Made by a program: the position numbers
NCBI RefSeq assembly: GCF_003334305.1
Contig: NZ_QOWS01000001.1
Origin: Escherichia coli
GTDB lineage: Bacteria > Pseudomonadota > Gammaproteobacteria > Enterobacterales > Enterobacteriaceae
Strand: one strand, 5' to 3'
DNA length: 64,000 nucleotides
Shown here: in pieces, positions 21,601-27,600 of the stretch
How positions within the stretch are numbered: position 1 is the stretch's first letter
Layout: each line of letters starts with the position of its first letter

Positions 21601-24600
21601 ACAGCGAAGCGATTCGGGTAGTGCTGGCGATTATCGCCTTTGCCTCTATCATCTTCGGTAACCTGATGGCGCTGAGCCAGACCAATATCAAACGTCTGCT
21701 CGGTTACTCATCTATCTCTCACCTCGGCTATCTGCTGGTGGCGCTGATTGCGCTGCAAACGGGCGAGATGTCGATGGAAGCGGTAGGAGTTTACCTGGCC
21801 GGTTATCTGTTCAGCAGCCTCGGCGCGTTCGGCGTGGTCAGCCTGATGTCCAGCCCGTACCGTGGCCCGGATGCTGATTCCCTGTTCTCTTACCGCGGTC
21901 TGTTCTGGCATCGCCCGATCCTCGCGGCGGTGATGACGGTGATGATGCTGTCTCTGGCCGGTATTCCGATGACGCTGGGCTTTATTGGTAAGTTCTACGT
22001 GCTGGCGGTCGGTGTCCAGGCACACTTGTGGTGGCTGGTGGGCGCCGTGGTTGTCGGTTCGGCAATCGGCCTTTACTACTACCTGCGCGTGGCGGTGAGC
22101 CTGTACCTGCACGCCCCGGAACAACCGGGTCGCGATGCACCGTCAAACTGGCAGTACAGCGCAGGCGGTATCGTGGTGCTGATCTCTGCACTGTTGGTAC
22201 TGGTGCTGGGTGTATGGCCACAACCGCTGATTAGCATTGTGCGGTTAGCAATGCCGCTGATGTAAGCTATCAGTTTGTAAGTCAGAAAGCCGCCGACATG
22301 TTCGGCGGTTTTTTTTGGTGCCCTGACACCATCACCCAACAATAACCGTCAGCGCATGATTCCCTTGTCGCAGCATACGTCGATACGCGCTAATCAGCTT
22401 TTCCATATCAAGCATGATCGAAGCAAAGAGTTGCCCCTCTAACTCTTCTGAAAAGGTCACTCCCGGATAAATCTCCATTTCATTGAGTCGCTTAATGGAA
22501 AACTGTTTACGCAGCTCACTTCGATCCAGTGATTCCAGTCGGTCGATTGTCGCGGCTAACTCCTGATTCCAGGTCAATCCCAGGAAGCCATCTATGCCAT
22601 CTTCGAGGCTGTGTTCACCAAGCACGGCACGACTCAGCGGATCATTCTTCGCGGGATCAAAAGCAGAGGTGCCTGTCAGCCCAAAGTGTAAAAAATCCCA
22701 GCGTTTATCAATATCCAGTCGGCGTAATCCTGAAAGCGTGTCATGTATATTATCCATCAAAGGTTTTTCAGTAGACTCAAGCAGTTGGTTAATCTTTTCT
22801 GAGTCAATTTCTGCAAAATAACCAATCATTCCCATTTATTTTTCCTCCATTGAATTTTATGTTTCGCATCTTAAAACAGACGAGGGAAAATAAAATGTAC
22901 ATGTCGCTGTTTCTGGACCCGCCTCGAGAAATTTTTATTATTTACTGTTGTGTAACAAGGTTATAACACCATCTGAGCCATTTTCTGATAATTCAATCTG
23001 TCTGCTGTATCACCGGGCAAGTGGTATTGTTTATTACGATAAAAAGCGGTGTCAGTAATCATTACGGCGGGAATATCGTGTTGCCAATAATTCAGGTGGT
23101 CAGAGAAATCAATACCGGGAATAAACCATGGGGCATTCATAGAATAAACAGATAAATCCCGGGATGATAACAATGCCGTTTTTACCTGACGAACGGCGTT
23201 GATATCCTGTATTCTGCCGACCAGGCAATAAAGTCCCCCCGATCGGGATAAAGCCAGGACATTGCGGGTAAGGGTAATCCTGGCTACCAGGCGCAGAGTC
23301 GTAATAGCCAATCGGGGACGCCCTGCGCGGTAACTCTGGCACCGCTACTGACAAAGAACTCTTTTATATACTCTACGGACCTATTCAGATTATCAATATT
23401 GTCGGCATTACGTGGATGCACAGTTTGTGTAAGATAACGAACTGTTTTTTCTAATTGCTCAGGACTGACGTGTCGGGGCGTTGGCGATAATGCAGTGACC
23501 CAGGGTTGGTAAAAATAATCAGAGGGAGTGAAATCAGAAATAATATAACAAAAGGATTTTTTTTCATATATAAATTATCAATAAAAGACGTTATTTTATC
23601 ATTATTTATAATGAGTTATGAGTGTTTGTTTTATTACGGTTGTTAGATCTATACAAAAAGTATCTTTTACAGTGGCTTCGCTATTTTAAAAAGGAATTCA
23701 TATAAGGAAAAATATAATTATGTTATTTATTGGCAGATTGAGTTGACAGGGGGCAGAACTCTGAGGGTAAGAAAAGTCAGCAACAACAATCCACTACATC
23801 AACAGACCAGCAATCGCGTGCCGAGATACGCTGGAAATACCCGAAGATTGAACTGGCGGATGGTGTGACTGACATCAGTCAGTGATGACTTTTTAGCAAA
23901 CTATGTTCGACCAGTCAGCATATTTGCTGACTGGTCGAATTAATTAACTATGATGTTAACTTACTCTTTTGCCTGATGCTCTATTTTGGGGTTGTGAGTG
24001 TTTTATTTCTAAGTCTCTATAATAATCATTGATATTTGCATCGCCATATTTATCTAAATAACAATTTCTGTTTACCTGTCGATGTTGAAAATCAATTTCG
24101 TACTGCTCTTCTGCTGAATATTTTTTAAATCTGTCAGCATAGTTTTTTAATAACGTATAGGGGGCGCTGTCAGAATTGCTTTCCCTTTGTTCAATCACTT
24201 CCTGGGCTGCCATGCACACAAACGCACCGCAACTTTGGCTTAAGTATTGCTGAAGATCGGCATGTAAAAATATTATCTCTGGTTCATTTAAATGAACTTT
24301 TATATTATTATTCGACATTTCTCCCATGAGTTCAGAATTAAAACTATTAATGACACGCGTAAGTGAATTTTCTTTATCATGGCCTAGTGCACGCAATGAG
24401 TTGAATATGACGCATTTTATTTGTAGTTTATTATTTTTTTTATTTACTATTTTCTGTAGCGAAACTAATATCCAGTGTCCGCCAGTATTTATGGGGAATA
24501 ACTGGACTTCATTCGGTCATGATGGATCGCTCTTAATATTTTCATTGAGAGCGTCTTCCAGGTGAGTTCTGGTGGAGTAGGGGACGTAGAGACCAGTAGG

Positions 24601-27600
24601 ATAATTGACTTGAGTATTTTTTGCATTAGCGGCGATCTTCTGAAGATAGCAAGCTATTTCATCTGTGGTTAATTGACGATTTTTATCCCAGAAGTTTGTA
24701 TCATCACTCAGTTCATTATTCTCATCATTTAAAAGCACCTTTGAAAGCGACTGTTTTTCAGATATAAGAGGAATTTCATCACCGATAATTGTCATTAATT
24801 TCGAAGGGGAGAATAGCTTTTTGAACAGGAGAACATCTGAATTATCCGGACCAGTTGGTTTAAGGTGGGAGTTGGTTGCGGTATGTGCCAAATTATATAA
24901 TTTTAAACAGGCATTTTTAATAAGTCGGATAATCGATAGGGTCTCATTTGTTGGGTTTCTAACAATATGGTAAAGAATATCTTCAGCTTTTTTTCCAAAT
25001 TCATCATAACCTAACGCAATATTATGCAGTAACTCAATACTTTCTTCATCTCCGGATAACGCTGTTTTTTTTAAAGACTGCAGTAATTCCTCGGTCACAG
25101 TAAATTTTTCTGCAAATGTCTGACTGAGTTGGGTTTGAGATAATTGACAATAATTGCTGACAACTGTAACCATCATGGGCTCCTTTTAGTTGCAAAGGTT
25201 GTGCTGAATGAAGATAAAAAGAGGCAACTTATTGCTCTGAATATAGTTCGTAAGGAGATGAATAAATATCAAAAATCGCTCAATATGCCCGTGTGGGTGG
25301 ATATATGTAGCGCGGGTTGCGATAACAGGGCAAGTTTCGCCCTGTTTTTAATAATAAGCAGAGTTAAACGTTAAACACGGTGAAATCATTCGCTAGTTCA
25401 GTCGCCGGGAAAATTGACCTGCATTCACGTAACAGGTGCTGACAACCTTTGTCATCATAGCGCGAGCTGACGTGGGTAATGATTAGCTTACCGACTCCAG
25501 CCTCACGGGCTAGTGTCGCAGCCTGGCGTGTAGAGCTATGGCCGCGACTATTGGCTTTGGCTTCCATGGTTATATCCAGCGTCGCTTCGTGCACCATGAC
25601 ATCGACACCTTTAGCCAGGTCAAGTGCGGCATCGCAGGGGCCGGTATCGCCGAAAATAGCGAGCGCTTTACCTGGCACTGGAGCAGCTAAGTAATCTGCG
25701 CCGTTAATCTGCCTTCCATCTTCCAGCGTGATTGTTTTGCCCGCTTTTAATTCCTGAAACAGTGGGCCAGGCGGCACGCCAGCAGCTTTTAATGCCTGGG
25801 CATTTAATGCACCCGGTTTATCATGTTCTTCAATACGATAGCCATAACATTCCAGTGGGTGTTCCAGCGGATAAGCGGTTACTTTGCGCAGGCCATCATC
25901 GAGAATTTCGCCAGCGCCAATTTCGACAATTTCCAGCGGATAATCGGTCCATGAGCCGCTAATCCGCAGCGCGGTTTCCACAAATTCACGGATACCTTGC
26001 GGACCATAAATCGTTAAGGGTTGGATAATGCCTGACATAGAACGACTGCACAGCAAGCCGGGTAAACCAAAAAGATGATCGCCATGAAGGTGACTGATAA
26101 AAATCTTGTCCAGTTTTCCAGGGTTAAAGGCGGTATGCAGTAGCTGATGCTGGGTGCCTTCACCGCAGTCAAACAACCAAAGTCCGCTCTGGGTCGGATG
26201 TTGCAGGTTAAGCAATATTGCCGTGACATTGCGCGTGCGGGTTGGCACACCGGCTGAAGTACCTAAAAAAATTAATTCCATGAGTTCATCACGTTTCAAA
26301 AAATATTCCGGCTAGTATAAGGCATACATCTAAAAGGAGAGCATTATGATTGAATGGCAAGATCTGCATCACTCTGAATTATCGGTTTCCCAGCTTTATG
26401 CCTTATTACAACTGCGTTGCGCGGTGTTTGTTGTCGAGCAGAATTGCCCTTATCAGGATATCGATGGTGATGATTTGACGGGGGATAATCGCCATATTCT
26501 CGGTTGGAAAAATGATGAACTGGTGGCGTATGCGAGGATTCTGAAAAGTGATGATGATCTTGAGCCGGTCGTTATAGGTCGGGTGATTGTCAGTGAAGCG
26601 TTGCGTGGCGAAAAAGTGGGGCAGCAGCTGATGAGTAAAACACTCGAAACATGTACGCATCACTGGCCTGATAAGCCTGTTTACCTCGGGGCGCAGGCGC
26701 ATCTGCAAAACTTCTACCAGAGTTTCGGTTTTATCCCTGTGACGGAGGTCTATGAAGAAGATGGTATCCCACACATTGGGATGGCACGCGAGGTAATTCA
26801 GGCGTAATCAACAACCCTTGTCTATAGTTAGTGACAGGTTTTACGCAAATGGAGAACGAGAATGTCTAATCAGTTTGGTGATACACGTATCGATGACGAC
26901 CTGACGCTGCTTAGTGAAACACTGGAAGAGGTGCTCCGCTCCTCTGGCGATCCCGCCGATCAGAAATATGTTGAGCTGAAAGCGCGTGCAGAAAAAGCGC
27001 TGGATGATGTGAAAAAACGGGTTAGCCAGGCTTCAGACAGTTATTACTATCGGGCGAAGCAGGCAGTTTATCGTGCTGATGACTACGTCCACGAAAAACC
27101 CTGGCAAGGAATTGGTGTGGGCGCGGCCGTTGGGCTGGTACTAGGACTGTTGCTGGCACGCCGTTAAAACCTCCCTACACCGGGGTACTGCATTTTTTTT
27201 GTAGTACCCCGTATAATGTGAGGCTTTTAACAGGGAGAGGTCCGCGTGCAATCACTTACTACGGCGCTGGAAAATCTACTGCGCCATTTGTCGCAAGAGA
27301 TTCCGGCGACACCCGGCATTCGGGTTATCGATATTCCTTTCCCTCTCAAAGACGCTTTTGATGCCTTGAGCTGGCTGGCCAGTCAGCAAACGTACCCGCA
27401 ATTCTACTGGCAACAACGTAATGGTGATGAAGAAGCTGCCGTCCTGGGCGCGATTACCCGTTTTACGTCGTTGGACCAGGCACAACGTTTTCTTCGCCAG
27501 CACCCGGAACACGCCGACTTACGCATTTGGGGGCTGAATGCTTTTGACCCGTCGCAGGGCAATTTACTTTTACCCCGCCTGGAATGGCGACGCTGTGGCG

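Follow-up and report, generated by a model that had tools for sequence, protein, structure and literature searches.

Insertion hotspots of the flexible genome of Escherichia coli were reportedly described by Touchon et al. in 2009, and Oren et al. are said to have reported horizontal regulatory switching of intergenic regions in 2014. The nuoN-yfbM spacer resembles such hotspots in that one short site carries alternative cargo across strains, but it has no integrase or flanking repeat, nor an evident tRNA, and its cargo measures just 1.6-2.6 kb. The likeness to regulatory switching lies in an intergenic block nearby that is far more divergent than its flanks, although its donor was not identified here. 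At this same chromosomal site between rbn and nuoN, K-12 MG1655 has the most complete interval. For one of its genes, elaD, published surveys report absence from B2/ExPEC strains and presence in phylogroups A, B1, D and E, as well as a full-length elaD with a premature stop in 88 of 530 strains, clustered on few branches (Catic et al. 2007, PMC1847702; Wang et al. 2025, PMC12575377). Our census agrees with these surveys, which do not describe the states of the neighbouring yfbK, yfbL and yfbNOP: the elaD region is found in 4136 of 5426 complete E. coli genomes (76%) and not in UTI89, as read from megablast coverage, identity classes and sampled rows rather than from a typed phylogeny, in a collection biased by many laboratory K-12 derivatives and clinical clones.

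The window analysed here is a stretch of 64,000 nucleotides from E. coli (NCBI RefSeq assembly GCF_003334305.1, contig NZ_QOWS01000001.1). Its nuoN-rbn interval is very probably a small accessory segment, rich in AT and under weak constraint, of which E. coli has several structural haplotypes; the window carries one of the common reduced haplotypes plus one recent private lesion.

Layout of the nuoN-rbn interval

The gene order in K-12 MG1655 is elaD-yfbK-yfbL-yfbM-yfbN-yfbO-yfbP-nuoN (b2269-b2275), just as the earlier note on this DNA gave it, so the outcome that would have refuted the note (the same nuoN-yfbM adjacency, yfbL and elaD in K-12) did not come about. Coordinates, blastn against K-12 and folding bear out what that note had seen in the window: yfbM lies 66 bp from the nuoN stop with a terminator in between and yfbN/O/P are absent, yfbK is not intact (only scraps are left), yfbL is a frameshifted relic (a 326-bp deletion and small frameshifting deletions), and elaD has an internal stop. 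Relative to K-12, the window is thus short of the 2561-bp yfbNOP cargo, of 1.55 kb within yfbK and of 326 bp within yfbL, and its elaD carries the stop; the orthologues yfbM, elaD, rbn and nuoN share 97-100% identity with those of K-12. The GC content is 39% in the interval and 52% over the whole window. The description of the window as otherwise conserved did not survive, as a further ~3.9 kb of K-12 sequence (yfaX-rhmD-yfaV-yfaU) is missing at position 45522.

Table 1. Features of the nuoN-rbn interval (positions in the window)
Feature	Positions	Strand	Description
nuoN	20808-22265	+	intact; last gene of the nuo operon; left anchor of the variable interval; 100% amino acid identity to K-12 NuoN
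nuoN-yfbM spacer	22266-22331		66 bp; putatively ancestral 'empty site'; nuoN terminator hairpin and U-run at ~22284-22316
17 bp absent from K-12	22314-22330		TTTGGTGCCCTGACACC; K-12 has instead the 2561-bp yfbP-yfbO-yfbN insertion
yfbM	22332-22835	-	intact, 167 aa; DUF1877/YfbM family; sole gene of the yfb set kept; 99.4% identical to K-12
yfbL pseudogene	22938-23567	-	M28 metallopeptidase relic
hyperdivergent block	23506-23760		yfbL signal-peptide codons, yfbL/yfbK divergent intergenic region and yfbK start
yfbK remnants	23702-23885	+	5' scrap, 15-bp island, 3' end with stop
palindrome, perfect 15+15	23906-23939		between the convergent elaD and yfbK ends; same palindrome in K-12
elaD pseudogene	23956-25176	-	CE-clan deubiquitinase; TGA at 24517-24519
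rbn (RNase BN)	25364-26281	-	intact; right anchor of the interval

The palindrome between elaD and yfbK (-29.1 kcal/mol, z = -7.8) is probably a bidirectional terminator. RefSeq lists yfbL as 'frameshifted' and elaD as 'internal stop' in the identical genome of strain A7; both pseudogenes are therefore already annotated, and premature elaD stops are already published. One might ask whether these genes are really intact and the frameshifts and stop are errors of sequencing or assembly, since single-base indels in homopolymers (e.g. the one in the A-run after 23510) are a common kind of error and Catic et al. suspected an artefact behind one elaD 'pseudogene' (PMC1847702). However, at least 30 complete genomes obtained independently, from various hosts and laboratories, match the 6-kb segment at 100% identity, base-calling errors cannot make deletions of 326 bp and 1.55 kb, and the elaD TGA is a substitution, not an indel. 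We give such errors practically no credence.

The nuoN-yfbM spacer and its cargo

On folding, the spacer forms a strong hairpin (-23.7 kcal/mol, z = -3.6) with a U-run behind it. By blastn, K-12 positions 2387439-2389999 (2561 bp, yfbN/O/P) correspond in the window to the 17 bp listed in Table 1. The earlier note suggested lineage-specific gene loss; on such a reading the window's lineage would recently have deleted K-12-like yfbN, yfbO, yfbP and yfbK and would be degrading yfbL and elaD. All those genes are indeed absent or broken relative to K-12, and the elaD nonsense allele is restricted (144 genomes). Several observations nevertheless make recent loss very improbable. The spacer, 17 bp included, aligns base for base with those of E. 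whittamii (L005) and the divergent Escherichia L004, in both of which nuoN directly adjoins yfbM and yfbN/O/P are not at the site. The same direct junction occurs in 4214 of the 5426 complete E. coli genomes (78%), among them O157:H7, Nissle and APEC, so a lineage-restricted absence was rejected as well. Nor could a deletion from K-12-like sequence leave the 17 bp seen at the junction: with as many as 4 mismatches tolerated, no counterpart of the 17-mer was found in K-12 at either boundary of the insert or inside it. Further on, O157:H7 has yfbK and yfbL junctions identical to the window's, so that these are shared between distant strains. The microhomology search proposed in the earlier note returned nothing at the nuoN-yfbM junction, as would follow if no deletion occurred there, and at most ~1 nt at the yfbL junction.

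Absence of yfbN/O/P thus appears to be the ancestral as well as the majority state, K-12 carrying a minority insertion and the window presumably never having had these genes. The K-12-type yfbNOP is present in 946 of the 5426 genomes, at least 99% identical among carriers. The polarity of the spacer, with the empty state taken as ancestral, rests on the two more distant outgroups, E. whittamii and L004, in a set in which the E. albertii contig stops 14 bp beyond yfbM and E. fergusonii was not included. A nearer relative, Escherichia sp. MOD1-EC7003 (L003), with flanks ~94% identical to K-12, has a yfbN-like gene beside yfbM (86% DNA identity), so that presence or absence of cargo at the spacer must be an old polymorphism. 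This gene could also be read as a sign that yfbNOP is ancestral to E. coli and its closest relatives and that the empty spacer was re-introduced by homologous recombination, the loss being an allele replacement. The cargo alleles, which are 81-86% identical to each other and must therefore be old, would fit such a history. Against it, the spacer and flanks of the window are typical of E. coli (96-99% identical to K-12, 88% to the outgroups) and not an imported outgroup allele, the empty allele is found in the distantly related O157:H7, UTI89, Nissle, E118 and the window, and the near-identity of K-12-type cargo among its carriers is that expected of a young allele. Allele replacement is in our view unlikely, and an ancestrally empty site is preferred.

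The cargo itself varies: yfbPON in K-12, yfbON-like genes in A21, yfbON-like genes with an SMI1/KNR4 gene in 1504D004 and MOD1-EC7003, an IS200/IS605 tnpA in Nord1 and ISEcB1 in strain 3908. Different, unrelated inserts hence occupy the same short site in different genomes, which is what defines an insertion hotspot. The A21-type allele retains 5 more ancestral spacer bases (ATGGT) than K-12, and in strains with an IS in the spacer the 17-mer still adjoins yfbM. No terminal direct or inverted repeats of at least 9 nt were found around the K-12 insert, there is no integrase among yfbN/O/P, and there was no defence-system match. A classical genomic island or integrative element at this site was rejected, there being no integrase and no flanking repeats.

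Relics of yfbK, yfbL and elaD

The yfbL relic matches residues 7-87 and 210-323 of K-12 YfbL in tblastn and is 95-96% identical at the DNA level to the intact allele of Nord1. The 326-bp deletion (at 23313/23314) and 1-bp deletions after 23223 and 23264 are common to the window and O157:H7 SS17, while a 7-bp deletion after 22972 and a 1-bp deletion after 23510 are absent from SS17; a 6-bp gap relative to Nord1, after 23556, falls within a stretch where SS17 has a 4-bp gap. The large deletion is not a multiple of 3 and takes out residues 88-196 of 323, including the HYDS, GADDNASG and SEEPPF motifs of the M28 domain (Pfam span 95-317). These motifs probably hold the zinc ligands of the M28 family, and the deletion is thus predicted to remove the metal-binding half of the peptidase domain. 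With its homology clear and its frame disrupted with loss of residues, yfbL can be classed from its sequence as an M28 metallopeptidase pseudogene. The 326-bp segment is present in 3311 of the 5426 genomes, and ~38-39% are without it, a share obtained indirectly by subtracting from 5426 the genomes with the segment and the ~62 without the locus.

Of yfbK there remain a 5' scrap at ~23702-23826, whose start codon has become ATA in place of ATG, a 15-bp island at 23829-23843, and the final 40 bp, stop included, at 23846-23885, separated by two internal deletions of ~1.55 kb in total. The junction of this double deletion is identical in the window, O157:H7 SS17, Nord1 and E118. The interior of yfbK is present in 2537 of the 5426 genomes (~53% are without it), and yfbK and yfbL occur together in 2523. 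The yfbK and yfbL deletions would accordingly seem to be old single events. Overlapping the 5' ends of both genes, the 255-bp hyperdivergent block is ~72% identical to K-12 and UTI89, against 94-99% for its flanks, and is kept in all yfbK-less haplotypes; simple decay does not explain it.

K-12 ElaD matches NF008812 (455 bits), PF22103 and PF02902, and the window's ElaD is 94.6% identical to it over 403 residues, with an in-frame 9-bp length polymorphism at 24847-24855. By domain the gene belongs with the ElaD/SseL N-terminal and Peptidase_C48 families, yet it has no uninterrupted ORF with the His/Asp/Cys core: the TGA is codon 220 of 406 (TGG in K-12) and falls inside the C48 domain (165-362). 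The catalytic core comprises residues 228-319, with Cys313 (PMC1847702), and the stop is predicted to truncate ElaD upstream of it. An 81-mer bearing this stop was found in 144 of the 5426 genomes, and related strains have elaD inactivated differently, by frameshifts in E118 and 3908. The change from TGG to TGA is probably recent, and is the only narrowly restricted event of the four. Lineage-specific loss, as the earlier note had it, therefore stands for the elaD stop and not for yfbN/O/P, apparently never present, or for the old and widely shared yfbK and yfbL deletions, although yfbK, yfbL and elaD are all genuinely inactivated.

Some function could persist, either in a truncated 219-aa ElaD protein, whose ORF holds the complete ElaD/SseL N-terminal domain (Pfam 30-138), or in a regulatory or small-ORF role of the yfbL/yfbK intergenic block, in keeping with its retention in all haplotypes that lost yfbK. 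There is, however, no Rfam match above noise, promoter-like sites are no more frequent than in shuffled sequence, the yfbL relic has gained further small deletions unseen in O157:H7, and elaD is broken in different ways in related strains. The added yfbL deletions and the varied elaD inactivations form the pattern that relaxed selection would produce, and we attach very little weight to a retained function.

Proposed history and significance

The architecture of the window (nuoN next to yfbM, a yfbL relic, no yfbK, and elaD next to rbn) is that of O157:H7, BL21(DE3) and O103, the likeness of the last two being at the level of coverage pattern only. In O157:H7 SS17 the yfbK junctions and the three shared yfbL deletions are identical to those of the window; O157:H7 differs by an intact elaD of 407 aa, where the window has TGA and the two extra small yfbL deletions. 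UTI89 (B2) has the order rbn-yfbK-yfbL-yfbM-nuoN. elaD is missing from all four outgroup loci. Two of these, those of E. albertii and MOD1-EC7003, have intact copies of yfbK as well as yfbL, while SCPM strain L004 is without yfbK and E. whittamii without most of yfbL.

From these comparisons and counts, which are direct, we infer an order of events and the relics' lack of function. The ancestral Escherichia layout would have been rbn, yfbK, yfbL, yfbM and nuoN, with the 66-bp terminator spacer and neither elaD nor yfbNOP. elaD would then have entered non-B2 E. coli at a site between rbn and yfbK, and in one elaD-bearing haplotype two internal deletions may have destroyed yfbK, giving the intermediate with intact yfbL seen in Nord1 and E118. 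On this yfbK-less background the out-of-frame 326-bp deletion and single-base deletions would have destroyed yfbL, yielding the type found in O157:H7, BL21(DE3), O103 and ~38% of complete genomes. The elaD codon 220 probably changed from TGG to TGA not long ago, within the sub-lineage of the window. In a separate development, yfbO-yfbN would have entered the spacer in K-12's haplotype, followed by yfbP.

A broader view, which we put forward tentatively as possible but doubtful, is that the spacer has long served as an insertion hotspot, occupied differently among E. coli strains as well as among Escherichia species and swapping yfbO/yfbN modules (81-86% identical) with or without a TPR protein or SMI1/KNR4-type gene; that the 255-bp block is an ancient regulatory allele imported by recombination and linked to yfbK loss; and that the interval is a long-lived multi-allelic locus and not a site of simple decay.

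The variation of this interval is of an ordinary, already-known kind and is striking only against the K-12 reference. It is a caution on reference bias: set against K-12, a very common E. coli haplotype resembles a dramatic loss of five or six genes, when K-12 is the unusual strain, with a minority yfbNOP insertion and with yfbK and yfbL kept (missing from about half and ~38-39% of sequenced strains, respectively). Events of three different ages are separated within 3 kb, and the published picture of repeated elaD inactivation is confirmed. The hotspot with its small cargo, like the hyperdivergent promoter block, offers population genomics a point of minor interest. The core physiology of the organism is unaffected, with nuo, rbn and yfbM intact.

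Composition of the nuoN-rbn interval

The window is chromosomal DNA of E. coli. Its interval between nuoN and rbn was compared with its counterpart in E. coli K-12 MG1655, where the genes run elaD, yfbK, yfbL, yfbM, yfbN, yfbO, yfbP, nuoN. This is exactly the order given in the earlier note, so its reading does not founder on a mistaken gene order. The comparison also bears out its description of the interval: yfbN, yfbO and yfbP are absent, mere scraps of yfbK are left, yfbL (encoding an M28 metallopeptidase) is frameshifted, and elaD (encoding a CE-clan deubiquitinase) carries an internal stop. 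At least 30 independent complete genomes match the 6 kb around the interval at 100% identity, and in the RefSeq annotation of an identical genome (strain A7) yfbL is marked as "frameshifted" and elaD as having an "internal stop". The GC content is 39% across the interval versus 52% for the window.

Features of the nuoN-rbn interval, in window coordinates
Feature	Coordinates	Strand	Remark
nuoN	3' end at 22265		
nuoN-yfbM spacer	22266-22331		66 bp
17-bp segment	22314-22330		within the spacer
yfbM	22332-22835	minus	167 aa
yfbL	22938-23567		broken
Hyperdivergent block	23506-23760		255 bp
yfbK	~23702-23885		scraps
15-bp yfbK island	23829-23843		K-12 2384264-2384250
Palindrome	23906-23939		15+15 nt, 4-nt loop
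elaD	23956-25176		in-frame TGA at 24517-24519
rbn	start at 25364		

No remnants of IS or REP elements were found in 22200-25400, the only repeat being a perfect palindrome, shared with K-12, that separates the stop of elaD from the 3' remnant of yfbK. It folds with -29.1 kcal/mol (z = -7.8) and probably is the bidirectional terminator of the convergent elaD/yfbK pair. In the search for non-coding RNAs in the interval, Rfam returned only sub-threshold noise; a scan for promoters and terminators, which missed the nuoN hairpin, gave no enrichment over shuffled sequence.

The nuoN-yfbM spacer

The spacer between nuoN and yfbM holds the nuoN terminator, a hairpin followed by a U-run (-23.7 kcal/mol, z = -3.6 by folding). 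Where K-12 carries yfbN, yfbO and yfbP (2387439-2389999; 2561 bp at 39.8% GC), the window has 17 bp, TTTGGTGCCCTGACACC, that have no counterpart in K-12. The spacer, these 17 bp included, can be aligned position by position to that of E. whittamii and of a divergent Escherichia locus (L004), and nuoN directly adjoins yfbM in both. The record of the latter is titled E. coli, yet its MenF and Rbn share only 90-92% identity with their K-12 counterparts. Among 5426 complete E. coli genomes, the direct junction occurs in 4214, including O157:H7, Nissle 1917 derivatives and APEC. The K-12 genes yfbN/O/P (at least 80% of their length) occur in only 946, nearly all at 99% identity or more, and many of these carriers are laboratory derivatives of K-12.

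The cargo at this point differs between strains. Genes like yfbO and yfbN (85% identity), but no yfbP, occupy it in strain A21, which also keeps five ancestral spacer bases beyond those in K-12. In 1504D004 and the close outgroup Escherichia sp. MOD1-EC7003, yfbO/N-like genes are joined by a gene of the SMI1/KNR4 family; overall, the diverged yfbON-like alleles show 81-86% identity. Nord1 carries an IS200/IS605 transposase gene (tnpA) and strain 3908 carries ISEcB1, both with the 17-mer retained. The terminator spacer is thus an insertion hotspot that receives different cargo in different strains. From the spacer shared with two of the outgroup loci, the prevalence of the direct junction, the rarity of the K-12 insert and the alternative cargo, it follows that the window has the ancestral "empty site": yfbN/O/P were never lost here, the empty site is also the majority state, and the K-12 insertion is the minority one. 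Microhomology-mediated deletion, for which the breakpoints were to be inspected, does not apply at this junction, as there is no deletion.

The K-12 insert is not bounded by terminal repeats, the 17-mer is nowhere to be found in it, and neither PADLOC (searched for a defence function) nor NCBIfam gave a match; an integrase, terminal repeats or a defence function were therefore rejected for it. Pfam found nothing significant in YfbN and YfbO, and only TPR repeats in YfbP.

Decay of yfbK, yfbL and elaD

The outgroup scan yielded four Escherichia loci: E. whittamii, L004, MOD1-EC7003 and E. albertii, whose contig ends just past yfbM; E. fergusonii was not among them. E. albertii, MOD1-EC7003 and UTI89 (phylogroup B2) have both yfbK and yfbL, which are hence ancestral. 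In the window, two internal deletions relative to K-12 have reduced yfbK to three pieces: a 5' scrap that has ATA in place of the start codon, a 15-bp island and the final 40 bp. The same double-deletion junction is found in O157:H7 SS17, Nord1 and E118, which means that it arose once. Since yfbL is still intact in Nord1 and E118, we infer that yfbK was lost first and yfbL second. Of the 5426 genomes, 2537 still have the yfbK interior. At the yfbK junctions, the divergence of the 5' flank precludes a clean assessment of microhomology.

In yfbL, 326 bp are gone at 23313/23314. Smaller deletions follow 22972 (7 bp), 23223, 23264 and 23510 (1 bp each) and 23556 (6 bp). O157:H7 has the 326-bp deletion as well, along with two of the 1-bp ones, and by coverage patterns BL21(DE3) and O103 strains belong to the same reduced class. 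The missing segment is present in 3311 genomes, so that about 2050 (38%) have yfbL deleted there, in agreement with the estimate from evenly sampled rows. Microhomology at the junction amounts to at most ~1 nt (an offset CAAT/AAT). The 326-bp deletion takes YfbL residues 88-196, which form the N-terminal half of the Peptidase_M28 domain (95-317), together with the motifs HYDS, GADDNASG and SEEPPF; judged from its sequence, the relic cannot encode an active peptidase. The yfbK and yfbL losses are real but old.

All yfbK-less haplotypes share a hyperdivergent block that runs from the signal-peptide codons of yfbL across the intergenic region between the two divergent genes to the start of yfbK. 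Identity in the block is only ~72% to K-12, UTI89 and MOD1-EC7003, against 94-97% among these three and 94-99% in the flanks. This is more divergence than neutral decay would produce, given that the yfbL pseudogene next to it differs by just 4-6%. Most likely, the block is a divergent promoter allele imported by recombination; none of the four outgroup loci provides a closer match as donor.

Independent losses occur elsewhere, with breakpoints unlike those of the window: the C-terminal 48 codons are all that L004 has of yfbK, and YfbL residues ~52-287 are missing from E. whittamii.

Neither the four outgroup loci nor UTI89 have elaD, whereas 4136 of the 5426 genomes do. This matches what has been published on the gene, which is missing from B2/ExPEC and occurs in A, B1, D and E (PMC1847702, PMC12575377). 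In the window, codon 220 of 406 is changed from TGG in K-12 to TGA. The stop lies within the C48 domain (165-362) and upstream of the catalytic core (residues 228-319, with Cys313 in the active site; PMC1847702), so the product would be without the catalytic triad. The exact TGA-bearing 81-mer, found in 144 genomes, differs from K-12-like sequences solely at the stop position. Related strains carry other inactivating lesions, namely frameshifts in E118 and 3908. Premature stops in full-length elaD are already known as a phenomenon, having been reported in 88 of 530 strains that cluster on a few branches (PMC12575377). The "lineage-specific gene loss" proposed earlier therefore holds in part: the elaD nonsense mutation is the only event that fits it, the yfbK and yfbL losses being shared.

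Other departures from K-12 and the standing of the interval

The view of the window as otherwise conserved is not entirely accurate. At 45522 it lacks ~3.86 kb of K-12 (2358503-2362367) with yfaX, rhmD, yfaV and part of yfaU, of the L-rhamnonate utilisation cluster, and a few smaller differences exist. This second accessory-gene difference equals the nuoN-rbn one in size; yfaY ends at 45458, and a truncated yfaU-like ORF is kept at 45471-45869. Between nrdA and nrdB, where K-12 has yoaM, ~73 bp of the window (56460-56534) take the place of ~220 bp in K-12, and 46058-46211 near rpnE/ypaA aligns to K-12 in an overlapping or repeated, non-collinear way. The K-12 comparison covers the window up to 61681, at most a few bases from where the K-12 stretch used ends, so the end of the alignment there is no sign of divergence in yfaL. 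In the last 2.3 kb (61681-64000), on the side of this autotransporter gene, 63273-63355 gives an 83-bp match to the K-12 nrdA-nrdB spacer.

Our literature search on variability from yfbK to yfbP returned nothing specific. The interval presents no new kind of feature, both pseudogenes being annotated in RefSeq already, and its apparent reduction reflects the use of K-12 as the yardstick. Evidently, yfbK and yfbL are dispensable and have been lost repeatedly. Small, AT-rich and accessory, the interval exists in several allelic versions; K-12 has the fullest one, and the window has a common reduced one with one recent nonsense mutation.
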